64,000 nucleotides of DNA, taken from assembly GCA_963665975.1 (NCBI GenBank), contig OY762508.1, positions 3,357,456 through 3,421,455 of the forward strand, in the 5' to 3' direction. The notes beneath the pieces were generated by a model. That model saw only the letters and a list, made by a program, of their open reading frames with translations, was not told the origin of the DNA and made no database searches. This document shows, in pieces, positions 1,979-24,413 of this stretch (position 1 is the stretch's first letter; the number at the start of each line of letters is the position of its first letter). The DNA is from Rhodothermales bacterium (GTDB lineage Bacteria > Bacteroidota > Rhodothermia > Rhodothermales > Bin80). A program made the position numbers and the translations under genes.

Positions 1979-4900
1979 ATGATTTTCTTCCGGCACACTC
2001 GCAAGCAGTTGCGGTGGCTCCGACGTCCTGGTGGCCTTTCGGTCCGCCTCGGCCTGGGCGCCGTGGCCTGTATGTTGTCCGTGCAGGTTGTCGCAGCCCA
2101 GGAGATTTCGGTTGTGTTCGAAGTCTTGAAAACCCTGTATGACGTAACGGACGGTGACAATTGGAATAACAACGCCAACTGGGACACGACCAGGGTACCC
2201 ACTGCTGCTGAATTGAGTACGTGGCACGGAGTAACCTACACCGACGGTTCATTGACCCAGTTTTTCCTGGTGAACAACAATCTCACTGGTCCGATTCCGC
2301 CCGAATTGGGCAAACTCACAGATCTCAAACACGTTTGTCTCGACAGTAATGCACTCAGCGGTTCGATTCCGTCCGAGTTGGGTGACCTCGTAAATCTCGA
2401 AACCCTTACTGCCAGCACGAATGCGCTAAGCGATCCGATTCCGTCCTCGCTGGGCAACCTCGCAAATCTCAAAGTCCTTTCTCTCGGCGGCAATTCACTA
2501 AGCGATCCGATTCCGTCCGAGTTGGGCAAACTCGCAAATCTCAAATTCCTTTTTCTCTCCGCCAATGAGCTCAGCGGTTCGATTCCGTCTTCGCTGGGCA
2601 ATCTCGAGAATCTCATAATCCTTTCTCTCACCGACAATTCACTCAGCGATCCGATTCCGTCCTCGCTGGGCAACCTCACGAATCTCAGAGAGCTTTATAT
2701 CGCTCACAATTCACTCAGCGGTTCGATTCCGTCCTCGCTGGGCAACCTTACAGAATTCAGACGGCTTGATCTAAGCCATAACAAGTTTACGAATCCGTTA
2801 CCGATGAGCATGACGCAGCTGGGCTTCATGTACGATTTCGACTGGCACGACAACAACGGTCTATGCGCCCCGTTGGACACAGATTTTCAGGACTGGCTTG
2901 CTGAGGTCGAGCGGCGCGGCTGGGCCAGGGGCCCCAACTGTACTGCGCAACAAGCGGCGACGCTCTCGGTGCATGGCGAATCGGTAAGCGAGAGCGCGAG
3001 TGAGGCGGTGGTATCTGCGCGTTTGACGCCATCCAGCACGGAGGAGGTTCGGGTGCATGTTTCCACGGCGGATGGTACCGCGACAGCGGGATCCGACTAC
3101 ACCGCAGGGGCATCGGATCTGGTCTTTGCGCCCGGCGAGACGGAGAAGAGCATCCGGATTGCGATTCTGGATGATGCCCTGGTCGAAGGAGACGAGACGT
3201 TTCAGGTGCAGCTGAGCGGGGCGCAGAACGCGGACATCTCGCGAGGCGCGGCGACGGTGACCATCGTTGACGACGATTTCACGGAAGTGTCGATCGACGA
3301 TGTCGTGGTGGCGGAGGATGAAGGGCGTGCGGTGTTCACGGTGCGTGTTAGTGCACCGTCTACCGGTCCGGTTACGGTGCCCTACACGAGCGTCAACGGT
3401 ACGGCGACGGCGGGAGCGGACTATGTTCCGGTCTCCGAGGAGCTTGTGATTCTTCCGGGGGAGTTGAGCGGGCAGGTGGAGGTGGTCGTGATTGATGATG
3501 AGCGTTTTGAAGAGGACGAGACGTTCACGGTCGTGTTAAACAATGCTGCGGGTGCGGTGCTCGGCGACCACACGGGCGAGGGCACGATTCGGGACAACGA
3601 CCGGTATGGGTTGCGTGTCGATGACGTGACGGTAGGGGAGGCGGATGGCGGGGTGCGCTTTACGGTATCGTTGGACCGGCCGAATCCGGTGCAGATCGTA
3701 CGGGTGACCTACGCCACGGCAAACGGTACGGCGACGGCGGGGTTGGACTACGAAGCGCGAAGCGGCACGCTGGAGTTTTCGTCTGGGGTGGTGAGCCGAA
3801 CCGTACGGGTGCCGATTACGGACGACACGGAATGGGAGGATAGCGAGACGTTGTCACTGGTGTTGAGTGCGCCTCGAAACGCGGAGATTGCAGATAGGGT
3901 CGGAGTGGGTACGATCGTGGATGACGATGCGGTGTATCTTCGGATTGCGGATGTGAGGGCGGAGGAGGGTTCCGAGCACATGGTGTTTGCGGTGCGTCTG
4001 AACAGGCCCAGTCCGGTAGCGGTAAGCGCGTTCTACGAGACGCGGGGAGCGTCGGCGTTGGAGGGGGTGGACTACGTTCGCATGGCAGGGAGCGTGCGGT
4101 TTGCGCCTGGAGAGACGGAGCAGACGATTGTGGTGTCTCTGTTGGATGACGCGCTTGACGAGCCGGACGAGACGTTTCAGGTGCTACTAAGCGGCGTGGA
4201 GCATGCGGAGGTTGCGGTGCCGGAGGCGACAGGTACGATTGTGGATGACGACCGTACACCGGTGCTGGATGTGGTGCAGGGCGTGCGGGTGTTTGAAGGG
4301 GCTGGTAGTGCGTTGTTTGCGGTCACACTGAGCGCACCGAGCGCGTACGAGGTGACGGCAGTCTATGCGACGGTGGACGGTACGGCGCAGGCGGGTTCAG
4401 ACTACGAGGGGGTATCGGGTACGCTGCGCATTGCACCCGGGGAGACGGCAGGCATGCTCCGAGTGTCTATTGTGGATGATGCGGTACGCGAGCCGGAAGA
4501 GACGTTTACGCTGGTGCTGAGCGGGGTGCAGCATGCGGATCTGGGAGCCGGTACAAGCACGGGTACGATTGTGGATGACGAGGCGCCGCTGCACATGCGC
4601 ATAGACGATGTGACGGTAGGAGAGGATGCGGGAAGCGCGGTCTTCACGGTGCGGTTGAGCGGTCAGAGTGCGATGGCGGTGCGGGCGAATTATGCGACCA
4701 CGGACGAGACGGCGACAGTGGGTGCGGACTACACCGAGACGAGTGGCGCCTTGCATTTTGCACCGGGCGAAGTGGAGAAGCGGATTGTGGTGCCGGTGTT
4801 GGAGGACGATGTGGACGAGCCGGACGAGACGTTTCTGGTGCGGTTGAGCGGAGCGGTGGGAGCGGAGATAGCAGGTGGCGCCGGTCGGGGCACGATTACG

Positions 4901-7165
4901 GACAATGACGAGCTGCTGACGGTCAGCATCTATGATGGTCGCGCCTCGGAGGATGCGGGGTTGCTGGTTCTTCCGGTGCGGCTGAGCCGGACGAGTTTGC
5001 GTGTGGTGCGTGTGTTGTATGCGACGTTGGACGAGACGGCGGAGGCGGGCGCCGACTACACCGAGACGAGCGGCAGGGTGGAGTTTGCACCGGGCGAAGT
5101 GGAGAAGGGGATTGTGGTGTCGGTGTTGGAGGACGATGTGGACGAGCCGGACGAGACGTTTTTGGTGCGGTTGAGCGGAGCGGTGAATGCGGAGATTGTA
5201 GAGGGTACAGGTCGGGGTACGATTACGGACAATGACGAGCCGCTGACGATCAGTATCTACGATGGTCGCGCCACGGAGGATGCGGGGTTGCTGCATCTTC
5301 CGGTGCGGCTGAGCCGGACGAGTTCGCGTGTGGTGAGTGTGTTTTTTGAATCTTCGGATCTGACGGCGGAAGCGGGGTTGGACTACGCGGCATCGCGGGG
5401 GATCGTGGTGTTTGAACGCGGCAGTACGGAGGGAGTGGTAGCCATCACGGTGGAGGAAGACGCGCTGGACGAGGATCACGAGACGTTTCAGGTGACGCTA
5501 TCGCGTCCGACGAACGCGGTGATTGCGCGGGGTGTGGCTACCGGAACGATTGGAGACAACGACGGGATGCCGCATTTGCGGATGGACGATATTCTGGTGC
5601 GTGAGGACGGTGAGGCGGCGGTCTTTACGGTGCGGCTTTCGATGCCGAGCACGCGATTGGTAACGGTCGGCTACCGGACTGTTGACGGCACGGCGACGGC
5701 GGGAGCGGACTATGAGGAGACCTCGGGCACGCTCACGTTTGCTCCGGGCACGATGCAAAAGGAGGTGGATGTACGGTTGATGCGCGGGGAGCGGGACTGG
5801 CGGGAGGAGACGTTTACGTTGGCGTTGGCGTCGGCATCGAACGCGTTGTTGGAGGATGCGGTGGCGCTGGCGACGATAGTGGAGGAGGAGCCGATAGAGA
5901 CGGGCGTGTTGGTGGCGTATCTTGCGCGGTTTGCGCGCACGTCGGCGGGGCATGTGACCGAGGCGCTGGGGGAGCGGTTGCGGGAGGTTGCTCCGGTGTG
6001 CGCACCGGTGGCTGGGGCGGGGTTGCAGCTGGTGCGGTACGCGAATCCGCACTGGAATCCGTCGGCGGGAGAGTTGTTGGCGGGTTGCGGTCTGTTGACC
6101 CGTTCGTCTGTCGGTGGTGGAGCGTTCAGCGTGTGGGGTCGTGGCGCATTCACGCGGTGGGGTGGTCGGGAGAGTGCGTTGTCGTTGCGCGCGGATGTGA
6201 CCACGGCGTCGTTTGGAGCGGACTACCGTTGGCGGAGCGGGCTGTTGGCGGGGCTTGTTCTGGCGTACAGCGATGGGGCGGGCACGTTCGAGGCGTATGC
6301 GGCGGACGGGAAGACGGGTGCGAGGCTTACGGGAGTGTATCCGTATGTGAGTTACCGTTTGTGGTCGAGCGACATCTGGGTGTTGGTGGGTCTGGGTCGG
6401 GGTACGGCGGAGGTGGAAGGCGCCAAGCGTGTAGAGGCGGAGCTTGCCGCGAGCCTGGTGGCGGCGGGAGCGACCGGTACGCTGGTACAAGGCGGAACGG
6501 CGCGGTTGTCGTACGAGGCGGATGCGTTTGTTGTCCGGGTAGATGCAGAGGAAGCGAGGCGGATCCTGGTGAGCCGTTTGCGGGCGGGTCTGGAAGGCAG
6601 CGTTCTAATGGGCAGGACGGTACGTCCGTATGTGGAGGTTGCGCTTCGTGGGGATGGTGGGGACGCGGAGACGGGGTTGGGGCTTGAGATGGGAGGAGGA
6701 GTGCGTCTGGCGCATCCGGGCAGCATCCTGCGTGCGGCAGTGGGTGCACGGGGGTTGGTGACGCATGCATCCGCAGGGTTTACGGAATGGGGAGTGGCGG
6801 CAACGCTGCGTTACGGCGCGGCGGGCGGTCTGGGTCCGACAGCGGAACTGCGTCCGGTATGGGGGGCAGGGCAGTCTGGCGGGATGCAGGCGCTGTGGCG
6901 TCACCCTTCGGTAGCGCAAGCGGCGATCAGCGCGTCCGGTCAACAACGCGTGGAGTTGTTGTTGGGGTATGGAGTGGCGCACCCGACAGGGGTGGCGCGT
7001 CCGGTCTTTGCGGTGACCATGCGGGAGGGTGGCCGGGAGTATCGACTTGGCTACGAGGTGAGGCTGCAAAACGGACTGGCGCTGTCCGCGTCCGGGACCG
7101 CACGAGGACATGTCGCAGAGCCTGTCGTGTACGGCATCAGCAGCCACGCGACGCTGCGGTGGTGA
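1979..7165 (+). CDS. Giant secreted protein: signal peptide, about 8 plant-type LRRs, 9 Calx-beta domains, C-terminal autotransporter-like beta-barrel
   Basis: 1,728-aa ORF.
- N-terminus is hydrophobic (GLGAVACMLSVQVVAAQE).
- 24-aa LRR units read LSGSIPSxLGNLxNLxxLxLxxNx.
- Nine ~109-aa units each have G(T)ATAGxDY...FAPGE...DDxxxExDETF...GTIxDDD (Calx-beta signature).
- The last ~420 aa have alternating beta-strand character (FSVWGRGAFTRWGG...FGADYRWRSGLLAGLVLAYSDG...) and a terminal aromatic residue (ATLRW), as in T5SS/OMP barrels. Confidence 0.8.
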   Translation: MIFFRHTRKQLRWLRRPGGLSVRLGLGAVACMLSVQVVAAQEISVVFEVLKTLYDVTDGDNWNNNANWDTTRVPTAAELSTWHGVTYTDGSLTQFFLVNNNLTGPIPPELGKLTDLKHVCLDSNALSGSIPSELGDLVNLETLTASTNALSDPIPSSLGNLANLKVLSLGGNSLSDPIPSELGKLANLKFLFLSANELSGSIPSSLGNLENLIILSLTDNSLSDPIPSSLGNLTNLRELYIAHNSLSGSIPSSLGNLTEFRRLDLSHNKFTNPLPMSMTQLGFMYDFDWHDNNGLCAPLDTDFQDWLAEVERRGWARGPNCTAQQAATLSVHGESVSESASEAVVSARLTPSSTEEVRVHVSTADGTATAGSDYTAGASDLVFAPGETEKSIRIAILDDALVEGDETFQVQLSGAQNADISRGAATVTIVDDDFTEVSIDDVVVAEDEGRAVFTVRVSAPSTGPVTVPYTSVNGTATAGADYVPVSEELVILPGELSGQVEVVVIDDERFEEDETFTVVLNNAAGAVLGDHTGEGTIRDNDRYGLRVDDVTVGEADGGVRFTVSLDRPNPVQIVRVTYATANGTATAGLDYEARSGTLEFSSGVVSRTVRVPITDDTEWEDSETLSLVLSAPRNAEIADRVGVGTIVDDDAVYLRIADVRAEEGSEHMVFAVRLNRPSPVAVSAFYETRGASALEGVDYVRMAGSVRFAPGETEQTIVVSLLDDALDEPDETFQVLLSGVEHAEVAVPEATGTIVDDDRTPVLDVVQGVRVFEGAGSALFAVTLSAPSAYEVTAVYATVDGTAQAGSDYEGVSGTLRIAPGETAGMLRVSIVDDAVREPEETFTLVLSGVQHADLGAGTSTGTIVDDEAPLHMRIDDVTVGEDAGSAVFTVRLSGQSAMAVRANYATTDETATVGADYTETSGALHFAPGEVEKRIVVPVLEDDVDEPDETFLVRLSGAVGAEIAGGAGRGTITDNDELLTVSIYDGRASEDAGLLVLPVRLSRTSLRVVRVLYATLDETAEAGADYTETSGRVEFAPGEVEKGIVVSVLEDDVDEPDETFLVRLSGAVNAEIVEGTGRGTITDNDEPLTISIYDGRATEDAGLLHLPVRLSRTSSRVVSVFFESSDLTAEAGLDYAASRGIVVFERGSTEGVVAITVEEDALDEDHETFQVTLSRPTNAVIARGVATGTIGDNDGMPHLRMDDILVREDGEAAVFTVRLSMPSTRLVTVGYRTVDGTATAGADYEETSGTLTFAPGTMQKEVDVRLMRGERDWREETFTLALASASNALLEDAVALATIVEEEPIETGVLVAYLARFARTSAGHVTEALGERLREVAPVCAPVAGAGLQLVRYANPHWNPSAGELLAGCGLLTRSSVGGGAFSVWGRGAFTRWGGRESALSLRADVTTASFGADYRWRSGLLAGLVLAYSDGAGTFEAYAADGKTGARLTGVYPYVSYRLWSSDIWVLVGLGRGTAEVEGAKRVEAELAASLVAAGATGTLVQGGTARLSYEADAFVVRVDAEEARRILVSRLRAGLEGSVLMGRTVRPYVEVALRGDGGDAETGLGLEMGGGVRLAHPGSILRAAVGARGLVTHASAGFTEWGVAATLRYGAAGGLGPTAELRPVWGAGQSGGMQALWRHPSVAQAAISASGQQRVELLLGYGVAHPTGVARPVFAVTMREGGREYRLGYEVRLQNGLALSASGTARGHVAEPVVYGISSHATLRW
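2282..2857 (+). repeat. 72-bp tandem repeat array (about 8 units) encoding the LRR block
   Basis: The strings cactcagcggttcgattccgtcc / cactaagcgatccgattccgtcc recur with a 72-nt period, and gggcaacctc..aatctc follows the same period. Confidence 0.85.
4724..5377 (+). repeat. 327-bp x 2 tandem duplication inside the Calx-beta array
   Basis: Units 4724-5050 and 5051-5377 both start g-c-[g/c]-gactacaccgagacgag. The encoded 109-aa units are about 80% identical by hand alignment, far above the other Calx-beta pairs. Confidence 0.85.
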
Positions 7166-13505: not shown

Positions 13506-15614
13506 ATGTCTGAGAAGGAGCGCGCGGAGCAAAAGGAAGAGGAAGAGGGTCGGGACGCTCGGGAGGACCGAAGACGAGTGCCGGCGGAAGGGCGCCGTCC
13601 GAGGTTTCCCATGTGGATCTATGCGGTGATTTTCGTTGCGCTGCTAATCCAGATCGTGGTCTTCCTGCGCACCCCGGAAACCAATTCGATTGAGTACAGC
13701 ACGTTTCTGGAGTATGTTGAGCAGGGCTATGTAGCCAGCCTCAAGATAATCGACGATAGACGCATAGAGGGGGAGTATACCGACGAGGCTGTAAGCGATC
13801 GCCAGGTCGAGTTACCGGAGAACGAGAGTGATTTTCTGGGGGCAGGCGCGCAGCGAAACGTCTTCGTGACGACCAAGACGGCCAATCACGACCTGGTTGA
13901 GTTTCTTAGCGAGGTCAACAAGGGCGCGCCGGAGGAAGCGATTCGCTTCGAGGCGGTCTACAACGAAAAATGGTTTGGTGGTATCCTGGCCTGGGTCTTG
14001 CCGCTGGCGATTCTCGTCGCGATCTGGGTGTTCTTTCTGCGCCGCATGAACCCCGGCTCCCATGTGCTCAACATCGGCAAGAACAAGGCAGTGCTGTTTG
14101 ATGCCATGGGAGAGCAACTGGTCAACTTCAGTGACGTGGCCGGGCTTGACGAGGCGAAGGGCGAAGTGGCGGAAGTGGTAGAGTTCTTGCAGACCCCCAA
14201 GAAGTTCACCAAGCTTGGTGGAGCACTACCCAAGGGCGTCCTGCTGGTGGGGCCGCCAGGCACCGGTAAAACGCTGCTTGGAAAAGCCGTGGCAGGCGAG
14301 GCTGGTGTGCCATTCTTTTCCCTGTCGGGAAGCGACTTCGTGGAGATGTTTGTAGGCGTAGGCGCAGCCCGCGTGCGAGATCTCTTCAAGCAGGCCAAGG
14401 AGAAGGCGCCGTGCATCGTATTTATTGACGAAATTGATGCGATCGGCCGCAGCCGCGGCCGCGGCATGATGATGGGAGCGAACGACGAGCGCGAAAATAC
14501 GCTCAACCAGCTTCTCGTCGAAATGGATGGCTTCAACACCGACAAGGGCGTCATCATTATGGCGGCGACCAACCGCCCGGATGTGCTCGACACCGCCCTG
14601 TTGCGCCCCGGCCGTTTCGATCGTCAAATCCTGATCGACCGGCCGGACCGGCTCGAACGGGAGGCCATCTTTATCGTGCATACGCGGAAGCTGCTGCTCC
14701 ACGAGAGCGTCAATCACGCGGTCCTCGCAAGTCAGACGCCCGGCTTCGCCGGCGCCGAGATCGCCAACGTGTGCAACGAAGCGGCCCTGTTGGCGGCGCG
14801 GCTGGAAAAAGACTCCATCGAAATGATCGATTTCGAGAAAGCGATCGATCGCGTGATTGCAGGGCTGGAAAAGAAGAACAAGCTCATCAAGCCCGAGGAG
14901 AAGCGTATCGTTGCCTACCATGAAGCCGGGCATGCCATCACCGGATGGTATCTGAAGAATACCGATCCCGTTATCAAGGTCTCGATTGTGCCCCGCGGTC
15001 TGGCAGCGCTGGGATTTGCGCAATCGCTGCCGGACGAACGGTACATCACCACCAAGGAAGCCTTCATGGACCAGATGACCATGATGATCGGCGGTCGGGT
15101 GGCGGAGGAGATTATTTTCGGTCAACTGTCGACGGGGGCGCAGAATGACCTCGAGCGCATCACCAAGACGGCATATGCTATGGTGGTGGATTTCGGGATG
15201 AGCGAACGTGTGGGCCACGTAAGTTTCAACGTGTCTCGCGGACGCAAGGACACTCCCGTCTTCGACAAACCGTACTCGGAAACCCTGGCGCACATCATTG
15301 ACGAAGAGGTCAAGTTGTTGATCGATGACGTGCGGCAGCGGGCATACGCCATGCTGACCGAAAGACGTGACAAACTGGAGGAGCTGGCCCGCGCTCTCCT
15401 GGAGCGCGAAGTGCTTGGACCCAAGGAACTGGTGGATATCCTGGGTAAGCGGCCATACGGTGAATATGTATCCTACAATGGTTCGACAGCGCAGGGAGAC
15501 GATAGCCCGGCGATACCACTCGGAGAGGAGCAGGGAAATGGACACGTCACGAATGAAGCGACGCTGCCCGACGAAATCGTTCCGGAAGAACCGTCCGATG
15601 CAGCGTCAGCGTGA
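13506..15614 (+). CDS. ftsH: ATP-dependent zinc metalloprotease FtsH
   Basis: Walker A GPPGTGKT, Walker [33 protein letters not shown], zinc site HEAGHA. I chose the ATG at 13506; the ORF track starts at the GTG at 13497. Confidence 0.95.
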
Positions 15615-15814
15615 CAGCAGGTTGTACAATACTGATCAGATAGTATATAACAATAAATCAAACGATTTCGATTCAAACGGGGATAAATGCTACGCAGGTG
15701 CTGCAATTAACACGATCTTAAAGCACACCCTTGCGAGTATGCCGTAAGAAGCCCTATCTTGAAAAGCTGCAACGGAATTGGCAAGATTTCAGATTCCACA
15801 ATACGGAAAGCTAC

Positions 15815-16189
15815 GTGCCGACCATTCAACAACTGGTGCGCAAAGGCCGTCACCCTAAGGTGCGGAAAACAAAAGCGGCGGCGCTGCAGGGCAATCCCCA
15901 GCGGCGCGGCGTGTGCACACGCGTCTATACTACGACGCCAAAAAAACCAAACTCCGCGCTTCGAAAGGTCGCCAAGGTGCGGCTGACCAATGGCATTGAG
16001 GTGATCGCCTACATTCCAGGCGAAGGGCATAACCTGCAGGAGCACTCTATTGTGCTGGTGCGGGGTGGCCGCGTGAAGGACCTGCCTGGTGTGAAGTATC
16101 ACATCGTGCGTGGGGCCCTGGACACCTCAGGAGTGGAAGACCGCACGCAGTCGCGCTCCAAGTACGGAACCAAGCGACCCAGACAATAA
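15815..16189 (+). CDS. rpsL: 30S ribosomal protein S12
   Basis: From the GTG at 15815: [57 protein letters not shown]. The track start at 15731 is an upstream extension. Confidence 0.95.
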
Positions 16190-16274
16190 CCGTCATTGGC
16201 GGTGCATGCTGTGCCTCGGCACATAGAGACAGCATCTCGTAACCGCTCCGAACGCAGACCACGATCAGGGAGCT

Positions 16275-16742
16275 ATGCGTAGAAAGTCAGCCGAAAGGAG
16301 ACTAGCCTCGCCGGATCCGCGATACGATGACGCCCTCGTGTCGCGCTTTATTAACTATGTCATGCGGGACGGCAAGAAAAGCGTGGCGCAGGGAATCGTA
16401 TACAATGCCTTTGCCATCATCGAGCAGCGTACGGGTGAGGCGGGCATCGAGGTGTTTCGGAAGGCCGTTCAGAACGTGTCGCCGCTGGTGGAAGTGCGCA
16501 GCCGCCGCGTGGGCGGCGCCACCTACCAGGTGCCCATCGAGGTGCGTACGGATCGGCGCGTGGCGCTGGCCTTCCGCTGGATCATTCAGTACGCGAGAAA
16601 TCGGAATGACCGCGCGATGGCCAATCGCCTGGCCAATGAACTCATTGCCGCGGCGAAGGGTGAGGGCGGATCTATCAAGAAAAAAGACGACACGCACCGA
16701 ATGGCAGAGTCCAACAGGGCGTTTGCGCATTTCCGGTTCTAG
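16275..16742 (+). CDS. rpsG: 30S ribosomal protein S7
   Basis: 155 aa: ...[27 protein letters not shown]...YQVPIEVR...; position in the str operon. Confidence 0.97.
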
Positions 16743-16751
16743 ATAGCAACA

Positions 16752-18857
16752 ATGAGCAAACCGAGAGCCATACCGCTTCGTCGCATGCGCAATATTGGCA
16801 TCATGGCCCATATTGACGCAGGCAAGACGACCACCACCGAACGGGTCCTGTTCTACACGGGACGACTGCATCGGATGGGTGAGGTGCACGAAGGCGGTGC
16901 GACGATGGACTGGATGGAGCAGGAGAAGGAGCGCGGTATCACCATTACGAGTGCTGCGACGACCTGCTTCTGGGAGCGGAATTCGGAGGATTACCGCATC
17001 AATATCATTGATACTCCCGGCCACGTGGACTTTACCGTCGAGGTCGAACGCTCGCTGCGCGTTCTGGACGGAGCGATCGCGCTCTTTTGTGCGGTGGGCG
17101 GCGTGGAGCCCCAGTCCGAAACCGTCTGGCGACAGGCAAACAAGTACAAGGTGCCACGGATCGCCTTTGTGAACAAGATGGATCGGACAGGTGCCGACTT
17201 TACGGAGGCCGTCACGTCCATGGCAGAGCGCCTCAAGGCAAAGGCCGTGCCGGTACAGATTCCGATCGGCGCCGGCGCATTGTTTCGGGGCGTGATCGAC
17301 TTGATCACCAATAAAGCTATTATCTGGCACGATGCAACGCAGGGTGCGACGTGGGATGAAATCGACATCCCGGAAGATCTGAAAAACGAGACCAGGCACT
17401 GGCGCATCCTTCTTCTGGAAGCCATAGCCGAGTACAACGACGCCCTGCTCATGAAATATCTCGAAGGGGAGGATATCACCCCCGACGAGATTCGCGAGAC
17501 CGTCCGCAAGGCGACGCTGGACCTGGACATTACACCGGTGTTCTGCGGCACGGCATTCAAGAACAAGGGCATTCAGCGTCTGCTGGATGGCGTAATCGAC
17601 TATCTGCCCAGTCCGCTGGATGTGCCCTCAGTCGAAGGCATTGTCCCGCGCACCGAACGCGTCGTGGAGCGGCGCCCGGTAGTGTCTGAGCCGTTTAGCG
17701 CCATTGCCTTCAAGATTGCCACCGATCCGTATGTCGGAAAGCTGACATTCATGCGCGTCTATAGCGGCGCCCTGGACAAGGGCTCGCAGGTGTACAACGC
17801 GACCACGGACCGCAAGGAGCGTATCGGCCGCCTATTGTTCATGCACGCCAACCGCAGGGAAGATGTGTCGCGTGTCGAGGCGGGTGATATCGCAGCCGCC
17901 GTGGGCCTCAAGAAGGTGCGCACCGGAGAGACGCTCTCGGCTCCGGACGAGCCGGTAATCCTGGAAAAGATGGACTTCCCGGATCCCGTGATTCGGATCG
18001 CCATCGAGCCCCGGACCAAGGCGGATAGCGACAAGCTCACCACCGGCCTGCAGAAGCTGGCCGAGGAGGACCCGACCTTCAAAGTGTCGGTGGATCCGGA
18101 GACCGGGCAAACCCTGATTGCCGGGATGGGAGAGCTGTACCTCGAGATCATCGTAGACCGCCTCCGCCGGGAGTTCAAGGTTGAAGCGAACGTGGGCAAG
18201 CCACAGGTAGCCTACCGCGAAGCCATCAAGAAGACCGTGGACGAGCGGTATACGCACAAGAAGCAGACCGGTGGTCGGGGACAGTTTGCCGTCATCCATG
18301 TGGAGATCGGTCCCAATGAGAGTGGCGTCGGCTTTGAGTTCGTCAACGAAATCGTCGGAGGGGCCATCCCGAAGGAGTTTATTCCCTCTGTCCAGAAAGG
18401 CATCCAGGCGGCGCTGGACCAAGGCCCGCTGGCTGGCTATCCGATCGAAGGCGTCAAGGCGCGACTGTATGACGGCAAGCATCACGACGTGGATTCGGAC
18501 CAGCACGCCTTTGAAATCGCAGGTCAGATGGCCTTCCGCAGCGCAGCCCGCAAGGCGAGGCCTGTGCTCATGGAGCCCATCATGAACGTCGAAGTCGTGA
18601 CGCCCGAACAGTATATGGGAGATGTCATCGGCGACCTCAACAGCCGTCGGGGACGCATATCATCGATGAACCAGCGGCAAGATGCCCATGTCATCAATGC
18701 GCTGGTGCCGCTGTCCCACATGTTTGGGTACTCGACCGATATGCGGTCGATCACCCAGGGCCGCGCGATCTATTCGATGCAGTTCGAGACCTACGAAGAG
18801 GTCCCAAAGAGTATCGCGGAATCTATCGTCCTGACAACCAACGGGGCGGCGAGGTAA
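16752..18857 (+). CDS. fusA: Elongation factor G
   Basis: 701 aa with [17 protein letters not shown] and NKMD motifs. Confidence 0.97.
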
Positions 18858-18891
18858 TCCGCACGAGCAGACACACAAACCGCAACACGCC

Positions 18892-20082
18892 ATGGCTAAA
18901 GAACATTTTCAACGTACGAAGCCGCATGTCAACGTAGGAACGATAGGGCATGTGGACCACGGCAAGACGACCCTTACGGCGGCGATCACGAAGGTGCTGA
19001 ACGATAGGTATGGGGGTACGGAGGTGCGTTCGTTTGATTCGATTGACAACGCACCGGAGGAGCGTGAGCGCGGTATCACGATAGCGACGGCGCATGTGGA
19101 GTACGAGACGGGAGAGCGGCACTATGCGCATGTGGACTGTCCGGGTCACGCGGACTATGTGAAGAACATGGTGACGGGTGCGGCACAGATGGACGGAGCG
19201 ATATTGGTGGTTGATGCGTCGGATGGTCCGATGCCACAGACGCGGGAGCACATCTTGTTGGCCCGTCAGGTGGGAGTTCCGTACATCGTGGTGTTCATGA
19301 ACAAGGTGGATTTGGTGGATGACGAGGAGTTGTTGGAGTTGGTGGAGATGGAGGTACGGGAGTTGTTGGAGCAGTATGAGTTTCCGGGTGATGACATTCC
19401 GGTGGTGATGGGTTCGGCGTTGGGAGCGTTGAACGGGGAGTCGGACTGGGAGGACAAGATATTGGAGTTGATGGGTTCGGTGGACGGGTACATTCCGACT
19501 CCGGAGCGCGACAAGGACAAGCCGTTTTTGATGCCGGTGGAGGATGTATTTTCGATTACGGGTCGAGGTACGGTAGCGACGGGCCGGGTGGAGCGCGGAG
19601 TGGTGAAGACGGGTGAGAAGGTGGAGATTGTAGGGATACGAGAGGAGAAGCGTTCGACGGTGGTGACGGGAGTGGAGATGTTTCGGAAGATACTGGATGA
19701 GGGTCAGGCGGGAGACAACGTGGGGTTGTTGTTGCGTGGAGTGGGTAAGGACGAGGTGGAGCGCGGTCAGGTGGTAGTGCATCCGGATTCGATTACGCCG
19801 CACAAGGAGTTTTTGTGTGAGGTGTACGTATTGAGCAAAGAGGAGGGAGGTCGTCACACGCCGTTTTTCAAGGGGTATCGTCCGCAGTTTTACTTTCGGA
19901 CGACGGATGTGACGGGTGATATCGAGTTGCCGGAGGGAGTAGAGATGGTGATGCCTGGCGACAACACGCAGTTTGAGGTGAAGTTGATACAGCCGGTGGC
20001 GATGGAGCAGGGATTGCGTTTTGCGATCCGGGAAGGGGGCAAGACGGTAGGCGCAGGCGTCGTGTCCAAAATCCTGGACTAA
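18892..20082 (+). CDS. tuf: Elongation factor Tu
   Basis: 396 aa with [17 protein letters not shown] and NKVD motifs. Codon usage is atypical (see findings). Confidence 0.97.
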
Positions 20083-20110
20083 CCTCGCGACCGAAATCCG
20101 ACACGGACTT

Positions 20111-20419
20111 ATGACAAGCCAGAAGATTCGCATCAAGCTCAAGTCGTACGATCATACGCTGATCGACAAGAGCGCGGAAAAGATCATCAAGACCGTCAAG
20201 TCGACGGGTGCTGTGGTCAGCGGACCTATTCCGCTGCCTACGAAAAAGGCGATCTATACGGTGCTGCGAAGCCCGCATGTCAACAAGAAGAGTCGCGAGC
20301 AGTTTGAGAGCCGCAGCCACAAACGGCTGATCGACATTCTGTCAACCAGCAGCAAAACCGTGGATGCCCTGATGAAGCTCGAGCTTCCCAGTGGCGTTGA
20401 TGTTGAAATCAAGGTTTAA
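20111..20419 (+). CDS. rpsJ: 30S ribosomal protein S10
   Basis: 102 aa: [25 protein letters not shown]...[15 protein letters not shown]. Confidence 0.97.
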
Positions 20420-20454
20420 CCCGTGTAAAAAGCGGGAGTGAAACGAGTACTGCG

Positions 20455-21084
20455 ATGAGCGGCATGATCGGAAAGAAGGTTGGCATGACCAGCATCTTTG
20501 ATGCAGAGGGGAATAACATCCCGTGCACCATCCTGGAGCTTGGTCCCAACGTGGTCGTTCAGGTCAAGCGGTCCGAAGACAAGGACGGCTACGATGCCGT
20601 TCAGTTGGGATTTGGAGCCCGAAAGCCACGCCGAACCACGAGTGCGATGCGCGGCCATTTTGGCGCTGCCGGCGTGCTGCCACAGCGCGTACTGGTAGAA
20701 TTTGCATGGTCTGGCGAAGAGCTGGCGCAGGGGGACGAAGTGCGCGTTGAAGATGTCTTCGTGGAAGGAGAAATGGTCGACGTCGCCGGAACTTCCAAAG
20801 GCAAGGGATTCCAGGGTGTTGTCCGCCGCCACGGATTCCGTGGCGTCAACGATCGGACGCACGGCCAGCACAACCGCGAACGCGCCCCTGGCTCGATCGG
20901 CGCTTCATCGGACCCGTCGCGCGTGTTCAAGGGCATGCGCATGGGTGGACGCATGGGCGGTCGCAGAACGAAAGTCAAGAATCTGGACGTGGCACGCATT
21001 TTTCCGGAGCATAATCTGATCCTCGTACGCGGGGCCGTTCCCGGTCCTGCTAATGGCGTGGTGCAGGTATACAAGAAGCCGTGA
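20455..21084 (+). CDS. rplC: 50S ribosomal protein L3
   Basis: 209 aa: GMIGKKVGMTSIFD...TSKGKGFQGVVRRHGF. Confidence 0.97.
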   Translation: MSGMIGKKVGMTSIFDAEGNNIPCTILELGPNVVVQVKRSEDKDGYDAVQLGFGARKPRRTTSAMRGHFGAAGVLPQRVLVEFAWSGEELAQGDEVRVEDVFVEGEMVDVAGTSKGKGFQGVVRRHGFRGVNDRTHGQHNRERAPGSIGASSDPSRVFKGMRMGGRMGGRRTKVKNLDVARIFPEHNLILVRGAVPGPANGVVQVYKKP

Positions 21085-21088
21085 TCCC

Positions 21089-21754
21089 ATGGAATTAGCG
21101 GTATACCATGTAGACGGGAGCGAGACAGGCCGTACGGTGGTCCTGGATGTCGGCGTCTTTGGCGCGGAGCCCAATGACCATGTGCTGTGGCTAGACATAC
21201 GGCGCACCCAGGCGACCAGCCGCCAGGGAACGCACAAGACCAAGGAACGAAGCGAAATCACCGGCAGCACGCGGAAGCTGTATCGCCAGAAAGGCACCGG
21301 CATGGCGCGCTCCGGTAATATCAAATCTCCGATCAAGCGAAGCGGCGGGCGAGCGTTCGGTCCGCGTCCGCGGAGTTATGGTCTCCGGCTGAGCCGGAAG
21401 ACGCGCCGCCTTGCGCGCCGGTCAGCGCTGAGCTACAAGGCGGGGGAGGAGGCCATTCGCGTGGTCGAGCCCCTTGTGTTCGCCGAGCCGGACACGGCAC
21501 TGCTGGTGAACCTCATGGAGGCCCTCGCCCTAACGGAGAAACGTGCTCTCGTGGTAACGGCGGCGCATGCGCCGAACGTGTACCGTTCCAGTCGCAATCT
21601 GGCGAAGATCGCCGTGCGCGAAGCACGCTGCGTGTCTGCAGAAGATATTCTGCGGGCCGGTGTGCTGGTCTGCGAAGAAGGCGCCGTGGATGTGCTTGCG
21701 CACACGCTGGGCGGTGCTGCGAAGGAAACGGTCGCCGAAGAGGCGCACGCCTGA
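21089..21754 (+). CDS. rplD: 50S ribosomal protein L4
   Basis: From the ATG at 21089: MELAVYHVDGSETGRTV...RKLYRQKGTGMARSGNIKSP. The track start at 21053 overlaps rplC. Confidence 0.93.
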   Translation: MELAVYHVDGSETGRTVVLDVGVFGAEPNDHVLWLDIRRTQATSRQGTHKTKERSEITGSTRKLYRQKGTGMARSGNIKSPIKRSGGRAFGPRPRSYGLRLSRKTRRLARRSALSYKAGEEAIRVVEPLVFAEPDTALLVNLMEALALTEKRALVVTAAHAPNVYRSSRNLAKIAVREARCVSAEDILRAGVLVCEEGAVDVLAHTLGGAAKETVAEEAHA

Positions 21755-21773
21755 ATCTAGACGGATTAACGAA

Positions 21774-22073
21774 ATGAGCCGCGAAATACTGATCCGCCCC
21801 ATGGTGACCGAAAAGCTCACGCAGCTTATGGAAGCGGGGCACTACGGCTTCGAAGTGGATATCCACGCCAACAAGATCGAGATTCGCAAGGCCGTGGAAG
21901 AGCGGTTTCCCGGGTCGAAGATTCAGGAGGTCAGGACCATGATCGTGCGCGGAAAGCGTCGGCAGCAGTTTACTCGCCGGGGCGTGCGCCAGGGGCGAAC
22001 GGCGCGCATCAAGAAGGCCATTGTAACGCTCGCGCCGGATAGCGAACCGATTAACTTCTTCGAGGGGATCTAA
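21774..22073 (+). CDS. rplW: 50S ribosomal protein L23
   Basis: From the ATG at 21774: MSREILIRPMVTEKLTQLMEAGHYGFEVDIHANKIEIRKAVEERF. Confidence 0.93.
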   Translation: MSREILIRPMVTEKLTQLMEAGHYGFEVDIHANKIEIRKAVEERFPGSKIQEVRTMIVRGKRRQQFTRRGVRQGRTARIKKAIVTLAPDSEPINFFEGI

Positions 22074-22096
22074 GCGGCCTGTAAAGGCGAAACGCC

Positions 22097-22930
22097 ATGG
22101 GTATTCGAAAGCTCAAGCCGGTAACACCAGGGCAGCGTCATCGCTCCGTTTCGGATTTCGAAACGATCACGGAGGCGAAGCCGGAGAAGCGCCTGTTGGC
22201 GCCGCTCAAGAGAAAAGGTGGCCGCAACAGCACAGGCCGTATGACGGTGCGCAGTCAGGGGGGCGGCCACAAGCGCCGCTACCGCATCATCGACTTTAAG
22301 CGTGACAAGGACGGGCCGACCGCGCGCGTGGCGTCAATCGAATATGACCCGAACCGGTCGGCGAGAATCGCGCTCCTGGTCTACTCGGATGGCGACAAGC
22401 GCTATATCATTGCGCCGGACAAGTTGTCGGTGGGTGACCGCGTCGAGAATGGGCCAAACGCCGCGCCGGAGACCGGCAACTGCATGCCGCTGTCGAAAAT
22501 TCCGCTCGGCACATTCGTCCACGCTATTGAAATGAAGCCCGGCAAGGGTGCGCAGTTGGCGCGCTCGGCAGGCACCTATGCGCAGTTGACCGCAAAGGAG
22601 GGCCGCTATGTGACGCTCAAGCTGCCTTCTGGCGAAGTGCGGCAAATCCTCGCGCGCTGCCGCGCGACGATTGGTACGACGAGCAACCCCGATCACATGA
22701 ATGTCGATCTGGGAAAGGCCGGTCGTAACAGGTGGATGGGCAAACGGCCGAAAACGCGGGGTGTCGCCATGAACCCGGTGGACCATCCCATGGGCGGTGG
22801 AGAAGGCAAAGCTTCCGGTGGCCATCCACGCTCTCCGTGGGGACAGCCCGCCAAGGGATTCAAGACACGCAAACGAAAAAAACCGTCGGACAAATACATT
22901 GTCCACCGCCGAGGCACGAAACGCAGGTAG
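22097..22930 (+). CDS. rplB: 50S ribosomal protein L2
   Basis: 277 aa: [14 protein letters not shown]...[28 protein letters not shown]...HPMGGGEGK. Confidence 0.97.
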
Positions 22931-22936
22931 TCTCCT

Positions 22937-23218
22937 ATGGCACGTTCTCTAAAAAAGGGACCGTACGTCTACTATAAGCTGCAGCGCAAAGTAGACCAGC
23001 TCAATCAGAGCGACAAGAAAAAGGTGGTCAAGACCTGGAGCCGGTCCTCCATGATCACCCCCGATTTTGTAGGACACACCTTCGCCGTGCATAACGGAAG
23101 GCAGTTTATTCCGGTATATGTCACCGAAAACATGGTGGGCCACCGCCTGGGCGAATTTTCGCCGACACGAACGTTTCGCGGGCACGCCGGGAGCAAACGG
23201 GATAAACGGGGCAGATAA
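22937..23218 (+). CDS. rpsS: 30S ribosomal protein S19
   Basis: 93 aa: [11 protein letters not shown]...[42 protein letters not shown]. Confidence 0.97.
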
Positions 23219-23233
23219 CACACGCATCCGACC

Positions 23234-23602
23234 ATGGAAGCACGCGCCATCCGAAAATATATTCGCAGCTCACCGCGCAAGATGCGCCGCGTAATCAATG
23301 TGATTCGCGGTCGCAGCGTGGCCGGAGCGCTTGAGGCGTTGCATTTTTTGCCGCAGAGCGCCACGCGACCTGTAGAGCTGACCATTCGCTCCGCCGTCCA
23401 TAATCTGATGGACCAGCATCAGGGCGAGCGGTTTGATGAGAACGATCTGTTCATCTCCTCCATCCATGTGGATGAAGGCCCGACATTTCGCCGCTTCCGC
23501 CCGGCTCCCCGGGGACGCGCGCATCCGTATCGGAAGCGCTTGAGTCACCTTACGGTCGTGGTGCGGACTGGTAGCGACATCGAAGACACTAAAGACGCCT
23601 AA
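23234..23602 (+). CDS. rplV: 50S ribosomal protein L22
   Basis: 122 aa: MEARAIRKYIRSSPRKMRRVINVIRGRSV..ALEALHF. Confidence 0.96.
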   Translation: MEARAIRKYIRSSPRKMRRVINVIRGRSVAGALEALHFLPQSATRPVELTIRSAVHNLMDQHQGERFDENDLFISSIHVDEGPTFRRFRPAPRGRAHPYRKRLSHLTVVVRTGSDIEDTKDA

Positions 23603-23627
23603 CCAACCTCAGAACCTGTAGCGGCTC

Positions 23628-24413
23628 ATGGGTCAGAAAACGCACCCTATCGGCTTTCGCCTCGGCATCATTCGCGGCTGGGATTCCAACTGGTATGCCA
23701 GCAAGAAGGATATGCCCGCGAAGCTCGTAGAGGACGAAGAGATTCGTCGCTATATGGCAGCGCGTCTCAAACGGGCGGGAATGAGCCGCATCGTGATTGA
23801 GCGCACGCCGCGGAGGATTATCCTTACGCTGCACACCAGTCGGCCTGGCGTTGTTATCGGACGAGGCGGCGCCGAGGTTGAAAAGCTGCGCGAAGAGATC
23901 AAGAAGCTGACGAACAAGGATATCCAGATTAACATCAACGAAATCAAACGTCCGGAAGTTGACGCGAGTCTGGTTGCCCAGAACGTGGCGCAGCAACTGG
24001 AGGGACGCGTTTCGTTTCGTCGCGCGATGAAGCAGGCAATTACGGCAGCCATGCGGATGGGCGCACAGGGTATTCGGATCAAGGTCGGAGGGCGGCTCGG
24101 CGGCGCGGAAATGGGTCGTGTCGAGCAGTATCTGGAGGGCCGCGTCCCTCTCCACACCATTCGCGCCGATATCGACTATTCCGACGCCACGGCCTTTACG
24201 ATCTACGGCACGATCGGCGTCAAGGTCTGGATATACCGGGGGGAAATTCTCGGCAAGCCGGATCTCAGTCCCAACGTGCAGGCGCAGCGTCAGCAGATGC
24301 AGCAGATGCACACCGGGGGACGTCGCAGTGGAGAAAGCAAGGCGAAAGATCGCAGGCGCAGAGGGGGCGGCGGGGGCCGTCGGGGCCGTTCGGGCGGAGC
24401 GCAACGTAAGTAA
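23628..24413 (+). CDS. rpsC: 30S ribosomal protein S3 with a basic Arg/Gly-rich C-terminal tail
   Basis: 261 aa: [24 protein letters not shown]... with KH and S3-C domains, tail ...[26 protein letters not shown]. Confidence 0.96.

Follow-up and report, generated by a model that had tools for sequence, protein, structure and literature searches.

Why is one gene in an operon of translation genes written in codons that its partners scarcely use? The question is raised by tuf, the gene for elongation factor Tu (EF-Tu), in a 64,000-nucleotide stretch of the genome of a Rhodothermales bacterium (assembly GCA_963665975.1, contig OY762508.1, forward-strand positions 3,357,456 to 3,421,455), which we call the window and in which positions are counted from the first letter. 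The change in codon usage coincides closely with the coding sequence (CDS), as might be expected of a foreign gene. Our comparisons indicate instead that tuf is a native Rhodothermales gene and that its signature is a maintained, gene-specific compositional state rather than the mark of a donor. The best overall explanation combines a native gene that exists in two copies with selection acting at the level of the transcript, and we assign the two together a probability of roughly 0.6. The regime is specific to tuf and partly convergent.

The window contains a single tuf (18892..20082, 396 codons; NCBIfam EF-Tu, E=7.5e-228), the str-operon copy, in the gene order pyk, porW/sprE, ftsH, rpsL, rpsG, fusA, tuf, rpsJ, rplC; tuf and all other features described here lie on the forward strand unless stated otherwise. 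A sequence-only reading of the window had counted the tuf codons by hand, and computation returned exactly the same values, with TTG for 22 of 26 leucines and ACG for 24 of 26 threonines. The frequent ATA, the use of GGT, GGA and GGG for glycine and the scarcity of C-ending codons described in that reading were also found. ATA encodes 7 of the 20 isoleucines (ATC 7, ATT 6), GGT, GGA, GGG and GGC occur 16, 12, 8 and 6 times, and the third positions hold 222 G, 74 T, 60 C and 40 A (fractions of.56,.19,.15 and.10). Third-position skew, defined as (G-C)/(G+C), was 0.57 in tuf and about 0 in fusA and the ribosomal-protein genes. Among the other called genes of the window it ranged from -0.34 to +0.28, the sole exception being a large gene at 1979-7165 (0.36 overall), and the GC-skew profile of the window reached 0.5 only at about 18900-20000. 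When the EF-Tu protein was recoded 5000 times with the background codon usage of the window, the skew was 0.073 ± 0.051 with a maximum of 0.265, placing the observed value at z=9.8; the recoded genes contained on average 4.0 TTG (maximum 11) and 11.3 ACG codons (maximum 20).

A two-change-point fit over rpsL..rplB identified 18966..20046 (codons 25-385) as the core G-ending, C-avoiding segment, with a mean G3-C3 of 0.45 inside and 0.00 outside and a sliding skew of 0.4-1.0 across it. The different pattern that had been claimed for the flanking genes was confirmed. The upstream neighbor fusA (16752..18857, G3 skew -0.02) uses ordinary and slightly C-preferring codons (TTG 3/44, ACC 27/47 or.57, GGC.53, ATC.67) and opens with ...ACG ACC ACC ACC, and the downstream neighbor rpsJ (20111..20419, G3 skew 0.07, TTG 0/9) uses ordinary codons. 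The reported relaxation of the signature at the 3′ end of tuf is real, since the fitted segment stops at codon 385, at position 20046. This tail of the last 12-18 codons (20026..20082) contains ordinary C-containing codons in the window and in all of the relatives that we compared, with GGC, GCC, ACC, GTC, ATC and CTG present in both paralogs.

Ancestry was judged by ranking protein identities. Among the matches listed, the closest EF-Tu proteins (86-92% identity) are annotated as Rhodothermales, Rhodothermaceae or Bacteroidota, and the remaining ones reach at most 77-79%. Three relatives fall in one order of protein identity whether tuf, fusA, ftsH or rplB is compared, and this ranking revealed no conflict with the flanking genes or with taxonomy. 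In the relatives both tuf copies have skews of 0.37-0.48, with flanking genes near 0, and they encode 11-19 of 24-25 leucines by TTG and 23-26 of 25-32 threonines by ACG. The atypical composition is therefore not missing from close orthologs; it is shared by all relatives at both loci. The window tuf is 81-85% identical to theirs at the DNA level, and fourfold sites are saturated between the window and the relatives (K4 of at least 0.8 in the flanking genes), those of tuf differing at 0.42-0.48, near the ceiling set by its own bias. Over such a span the signature of a donor would have been lost. Because all relatives carry the signature while fourfold sites are saturated, the state is being maintained independently in each lineage. 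Xenologous replacement of tuf, which the sequence-only reading had suggested, was not supported by the identity to Rhodothermales proteins or by the presence of the same signature in the relatives.

The relatives carry two tuf loci in different contexts. One has the order TPR/porW, ftsH, rpsL, rpsG, fusA, tuf, rpsJ and matches the synteny of the window. The other reads queA, ispD, ispF, tRNA-Thr, tRNA-Tyr, tRNA-Gly, tRNA-Thr, tuf, tRNA-Trp, secE, nusG, rplKAJL, rpoB. On one 4.6 Mb contig the two tuf CDSs (loci L089 and L090) are identical at 1191/1191 positions although their flanks are unrelated, sharing just 2 bases upstream and 1 base downstream. A second pair (L087 and L088) differs at 3/1191 positions, at the very end of the gene, and a third pair on a 3.55 Mb contig (L082 and L085) differs at 74/1191, the copies being 94% identical to each other versus 81-83% to the window. 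Paralogs within a genome (0, 3 and 74 differences of 1191) are therefore closer than orthologs between genomes (81-85% identity), and window-wise identity of 0.8-0.98 gives way to 0.2-0.4 where the CDS begins and ends. This pattern in the relatives shows directly that the two tuf loci undergo concerted evolution through gene conversion.

A contig of 1194 bases (L081), from a near-identical strain in the independent sample ERR3887496, corresponds to window positions 18890-20083 with 8 synonymous differences, and its ends fall exactly 2 bases upstream of the ATG and 1 base downstream of the stop codon. It looks like a collapsed two-copy repeat. These ends, together with the bases shared by the two loci of the relative, point to 18890..20083 (the CDS plus 2 bases upstream and 1 downstream) as the unit homogenized between tuf copies. 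We infer that the window's own genome has a second copy as well, in a tRNA-tuf-tRNA-Trp-secE-nusG cluster. Since homology between the two loci ends at the CDS borders, the anomaly would start and stop there. Gene conversion from a second copy, another suggestion of the sequence-only reading, thus accounts for the gene-exact borders but not for the origin of the signature, because both copies carry it. That reading had also remarked that many Bacteroidota keep tuf near secE-nusG, in which case the str-operon position might be secondary. The remark is partly right: every class-Bacteroidia locus listed had tuf beside secE-nusG, but both positions are conserved in the Rhodothermales clade. Taken as a whole, the account of a native, two-copy gene under a maintained regime is in our judgement very probable.

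Several observations concern the two loci themselves. In the secE-type locus (L082:5903-7276, L088:5511-6947 and L090:5901-7271), tRNA-Thr(GGU) ends 25-36 bases before the ATG of tuf, and tRNA-Trp begins 6-62 bases past its stop codon; tRNA processing there would leave a tuf mRNA almost without untranslated ends. The tuf loci of the L082/L085 and L089/L090 pairs are about 330-360 kb apart, inverted on one relative's chromosome and direct on the other's, which suggests an inversion with end-points at the tuf copies. A sponge-metagenome contig (L083:2-3834) reads fusA-tuf-secE-nusG, joining the upstream side of the str operon to the downstream side of the secE locus; it represents either a chimera made in assembly across the tuf repeat or a true recombinant between the copies. 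A 625-aa protein on a 2218-base contig (P0001) scored as an EF-Tu relative (82% identity, 1090 bits); it probably arose as an artefact of assembly or gene calling at a tuf repeat.

We also compared tuf with its neighbors in 70 loci from many phyla (L001-L080), and the statements that follow refer to the loci listed in this small sample. The tuf-minus-neighbor skew offset ranged from -0.37 to +0.38, and the window exceeds all of these with about +0.55. Offsets of at least +0.2 were found in Wenzhouxiangella, Steroidobacteraceae, Dokdonella, Thiogranum, two betaproteobacteria, one Gemmatimonadaceae, one Acidobacteriaceae and one unclassified genome. Relative to the neighboring genes, the shift was the same in L036, L044, L058, L027, L016 and L023. 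In these skewed tuf genes ACG and other NCG codons and TTG increased, TTC decreased and NAC was kept or raised, with CC at 0.51-0.59 times expectation and AC and GC near 1. The EF-Tu proteins of skewed lineages cluster with those of their own taxonomic neighbors, so the shared state is convergent, tuf having reached the signature independently in several phyla. The exempt tail recurs in the other skewed lineages, whose last 12-18 tuf codons are also ordinary and C-containing. In an aligned profile, skewed tuf genes lie about 0.5 above unskewed ones from approximately codon 6 onward, until the last ~18 codons, where both sets have the same values of -0.36 to -0.53. Offsets above +0.2 occurred only in lineages with tuf in both the str and secE contexts; in single-context groups (class Bacteroidia, Firmicutes and most Actinobacteria) the offset never exceeded +0.09.

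Relative to background genes, codon usage is altered alike in tuf and in a segment of a large gene of the window (2951-7162). In the NCN and GTN boxes, G replaces C, T and A (NCG.87 in tuf versus.44 in ribosomal-protein genes), and in the GGN and CGN boxes C is replaced mainly by T. TTG takes the place of CTG and CTC, TTT of TTC and ATA of ATC, and GAA, AAA and CAA are replaced by their G-ending partners. The NAY codons (Asp, Asn, His and Tyr) are unshifted, with NAC/NAT ratios equal to background, and NCT and GTT are depleted rather than enriched. Expressed as observed values relative to background recoding, the pyrimidine dinucleotides are depleted (CC 0.41, CT 0.3-0.6, TC 0.7), CA stands at 0.8, AC (0.97), CG (1.0) and GC (0.77-0.98) are retained, and GG, GT, TG and TT are each enriched 1.2-1.5-fold. 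Purines make up 61% of the mRNA strand.

The codons preferred in tuf did not recur in weaker form in the other translation genes. The tuf shift vector was uncorrelated with that of the ribosomal-protein genes (r=0.10, slope 0.025) and of fusA (r=0.05). The latter two have a weak shift in common (r=0.51), and fusA moves the opposite way from tuf, toward the C-ending ACC, GGC and ATC and toward CTG. The effect extends to the protein. At codon positions 1 and 2 the window EF-Tu gene has the highest GC skew of 84 EF-Tu genes (0.27), the relatives ranking next (0.21-0.23); its valine count (49) is the highest and its alanine count (20) the lowest of the 84. The tuf shift is compositional rather than tRNA-like, is limited to translated sequence and reaches the amino-acid level. 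Avoidance of a specific motif, such as a restriction site, was considered and rejected, as a 4-mer test against shuffles of the gene's own codons found nothing strong in tuf.

The only other bearer of the signature in the window is the large gene at 1979-7165, which encodes a putative surface protein. Its signal peptide and leucine-rich repeat (LRR) part (1979..2950) is opposite in composition, with a skew of -0.05 to -0.36, whereas its Calx-beta repeats and autotransporter-like barrel (2951..7165) have a tuf-like skew of 0.4-0.8, which bears out the claim of such a signature in this part of the gene. Domain searches returned nine Calx-beta domains and a weak Autotransporter match, and the barrel ends in ...TLRW. 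The skew sets in near 2900, being absent from the gene's first 920 bases, continues to about 7050 and relaxes in the last ~35 codons. The third-position composition of 2951-7162 (G.53, C.19, T.18, A.09) is nearly the same as that of tuf, and the codon-shift vectors of this segment and of tuf are correlated (r=0.62); as in tuf, CC (0.41) and YC (0.54 of expectation) are depleted in 2951-7165. A process linked to repeats was rejected, since the Calx-beta repeats are 60-80% alike, the LRR repeats are oppositely skewed and the barrel is skewed without being repeated. The compositional mosaic of this gene may reflect module exchange. GGCC occurs 3 times in 2951-7162 versus 15.3 expected from shuffles that preserve its own codon usage (z=-3.8), a scarcity that may represent restriction-site avoidance.

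Our model proposes that what selection acts on is the base composition of the translated RNA, and that neither tRNA matching nor mutation drives the shift. Such selection would raise G and remove C mainly from CC, CT and TC, even at some amino-acid sites. The recoded tuf RNA would lack any C>G, YC-rich stretch on which the termination factor Rho could load and would fold more weakly, so that an EF-Tu mRNA could be finished even with ribosomes trailing RNA polymerase. Within the last ~55 bases, a C-rich patch could cause termination only past the stop codon, which is why the tail would be exempt. Gene conversion would pass the recoded state from one tuf paralog to the other.

Rho binds 5′-YC dimers with a footprint of 60-80 nt, and the published discriminators of Rho-dependent termination include %C, %G, %CA, %CT, %YC, %GT, %GG, %GTG and %GGT (PMC6144790). 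The dinucleotides depleted and enriched in tuf coincide with these discriminators, consistent with the idea of Rho avoidance and low structure. C exceeds G in 0% of the 78-base windows in tuf and in 2951-7165, and in 18-29% of those in other genes; the same two segments contain 4.3-4.8 YC dimers per 78 bases compared with 8.7-10.6 elsewhere. With YC at 0.55 of expectation and no C>G bubble, tuf has the composition of a rut-free RNA. Relative to recoded versions, folding was weaker for tuf (z=+3.0) and stronger for fusA (z=-4.7). Rho avoidance also predicts an exemption at the 3′ end and not at the 5′ end, as was observed. On this evidence a transcript-level mechanism, through Rho or through structure, is tentative: possible, in our view, but not probable. 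Its strongest form is more speculative still, namely an undescribed regime in which critical transcripts would be recoded at the RNA level against Rho, or another factor that binds pyrimidine- or C-rich RNA, convergently in the tuf genes of Rhodothermales, several Proteobacteria and a Gemmatimonadaceae genome and with copying by conversion.

Several results weigh against this combined explanation. C>G windows do occur in fusA and in the ribosomal-protein genes, although these belong to the operon of tuf. Serine in tuf stays TCG and arginine CGN rather than moving to C-free codons, and at codon junctions YC is not avoided beyond what codon choice itself brings. The class Bacteroidia has tRNA-tuf operons yet prefers C-ending codons in tuf. 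The large gene starts strongly C>G, with C above G in 73% of the 78-base windows of 1979-2950, and its homologues in the relatives have a weak signature or none (0.21 in L091, -0.10 in L092). Only one tuf copy was seen directly in the window's genome, and an exact-match scan of metagenome contigs for this species' second copy returned 0 hits. Two pairs of close strains gave contradictory results. Third-position divergence of tuf was 0.055 in one pair, compared with 0.15-0.23 in the flanks, and 0.136 in the other, compared with 0.045-0.105. These pairs do not decide between selection and mutation, and conversion between diverged paralogs probably confounds both comparisons.

An alternative at the level of the ribosome is translational selection for special optimal codons. 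EF-Tu is made in several-fold excess over any ribosomal protein or EF-G, and in a slow grower only tuf, and perhaps one very abundant surface protein, might reach the point where selection for tRNA-matched codons outweighs drift. In many lineages tuf does depart from the translation genes next to it, upward in some and downward in others, as the offsets in the cross-phylum set showed; CGT, GGT, AAC and NNG in the twofold purine boxes are plausible optimal codons, and avoidance of A/T-ending rare codons is common to tuf, fusA and the ribosomal-protein genes. However, the tuf shift has no correlation with theirs, and that of fusA runs in the opposite direction. TTT over TTC and the use of ATA for 35% of isoleucines are contrary to the usual rules. 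Selection on codons would also have to accommodate the shifted amino-acid composition, the exempt last 12-18 codons, and the N-terminal third of the large ORF (open reading frame), which is equally translated yet lacks the signature. We regard this explanation as unlikely.

The sequence-only reading had also raised a strand-specific mutational process. In this case very heavy transcription would expose the coding strand to asymmetric mutation, through loss of C by deamination or UV damage at C-containing dipyrimidines left unrepaired by transcription-coupled repair, and conversion would spread the result. In its favor, the coding strand has G>C and T>=A, the classical direction of skew; the depletion falls specifically on CC, CT and TC, with TT enriched; the replacements of CTG by TTG and of TTC by TTT are both of the C-to-T kind; and an amino-acid effect fits any nucleotide-level force. 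Transcribed DNA that is not translated should then be skewed as well, but the co-transcribed spacers of seven tRNA-tuf-tRNA loci (2243 bases) have a GC skew of just +0.07. NAC has not turned into NAT, and the main fourfold change is from pyrimidine to G with NCT and GTT also depleted, such that transversions would be needed. The skew ends 36-55 bases before the stop codon, within the transcribed unit, and it spares fusA and rpsJ, which share the operon with tuf without an intervening terminator. The spacer skew, the retention of NAC and the exempt tail lead us to disfavor this process, which we consider quite improbable.

The signature could also be a by-product of gene conversion itself, if heteroduplex repair were biased toward G on the coding strand and strongest in mid-tract. 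Its confinement to the homologous tract, its weakening at the 3′ edge and the restriction of offsets >0.2 to lineages with two tuf contexts would fit. On the other hand, no repair bias is known that would tell G from C by strand, the cross-phylum profile shows no exemption at the 5′ edge, and many two-copy lineages lack a positive offset. The barrel of the large gene is skewed although it is not an internal repeat, and its LRR repeats are skewed in the opposite direction. We give this explanation very little weight. GC-biased conversion was rejected separately, as the third-position GC content (GC3) of tuf was not consistently above that of its neighbors. Least credible of all is that the tuf CDS came from an organism with G-ending codons and recombined exactly at the gene borders: its codon usage is sharply unlike that of the flanks, with the change confined to the CDS, but the protein is nested among Rhodothermales, the skewed tuf genes of other phyla are not one another's closest relatives, and both loci of all relatives share the signature at 81-85% DNA identity with saturated synonymous sites, so any transfer would have to be ancient and already ameliorated.

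The surroundings of tuf were inspected for elements that might act at its borders. No terminator-like site was found at either border, including between tuf and rpsJ, and a promoter consensus scan at these borders is not meaningful for this phylum. A search of Rfam with 15000-24000 returned no known RNA element, and the 64-kb window contains no tRNA genes. A conserved hairpin behind the 3′ tail was rejected, the consensus fold being -10 kcal/mol with a covariation term of +0.42 and one compensatory pair. The tuf-rpsJ spacer (20083-20110) is 28 bases long, and the str and S10 operons are contiguous. This rpsJ leader and the tuf leader (18858-18891) are A/C-rich, G-poor and without a Shine-Dalgarno-like sequence, and the 78-base windows over both tuf borders are the most C>G locally (C/G 1.3-1.5). 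On the reverse strand, a 439-aa ORF (18823..20142) lies in register with the tuf codons. We rejected it as an antisense gene because it is codon-aligned and has no Pfam match. It is a by-product of the sense sequence: each sense NNG reads CNN in antisense, which is never a stop, and the sense codons TTA, CTA and TCA are absent.

These results affect how such loci are annotated and how codon usage is interpreted. A sharp, gene-exact anomaly in tuf should not be taken as horizontal transfer, since a two-copy tuf with conversion produces gene-exact borders. For codon-usage theory, the codons of the most abundant protein are here orthogonal to those of ribosomal-protein genes in the same operon, in a usage that outlasts the saturation of synonymous sites and that tuf has reached independently in several phyla. 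Pooling tuf and ribosomal-protein genes as a single reference set of optimal codons would mislead in such genomes. If selection on transcript composition is the cause, tuf would provide a concrete and testable case in which RNA-level selection overrides selection at the level of tRNA.

The window tuf can be set beside several known systems. Under Szybalski's rule, the mRNA-synonymous strands are purine-loaded and skewed, an effect that is genome-wide and modest. The window tuf resembles this in its excess of G over C and its 61% purines, but only two genes in the 64 kb show the effect here, and their third-position skew goes up to 0.57. In Salmonella, tuf reportedly has a strong codon-usage bias as a very highly expressed gene. 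The window tuf is likewise the most biased gene of its neighborhood; its codon set, however, is unrelated to the one used by fusA and the ribosomal-protein genes, in part even its opposite, and includes TTT and ATA, and the bias extends to amino-acid composition and lapses at the 3′ end.

To our knowledge, no case has been described in which a whole gene is recoded to avoid Rho, and our literature search found no description of a G-skewed tuf. In composition, tuf and the large gene are the reverse of a Rho utilization (rut) site (PMC6144790), having no C>G windows, half the YC dimers and enriched GG, GT, GTG and GGT; the neighboring essential genes are not recoded, and the link to Rho drawn here is read from sequence composition. 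The closest parallel is the concerted evolution of tufA and tufB, described in Salmonella and Escherichia coli (PMC5485169) and later in 6 phyla and 29 orders (PMC6053082; Lathe & Bork 2001 cited therein). Those studies treat protein and DNA identity rather than a tuf-specific codon regime, and the Bacteroidota, including Rhodothermales, are outside the six phyla that the survey lists (PMC6053082). As with tufA and tufB, the Rhodothermales relatives have str-operon and tRNA-tuf-secE-nusG loci with identical or near-identical paralogs whose identity ends at the CDS borders, and our findings extend the concerted evolution of tuf to this order.

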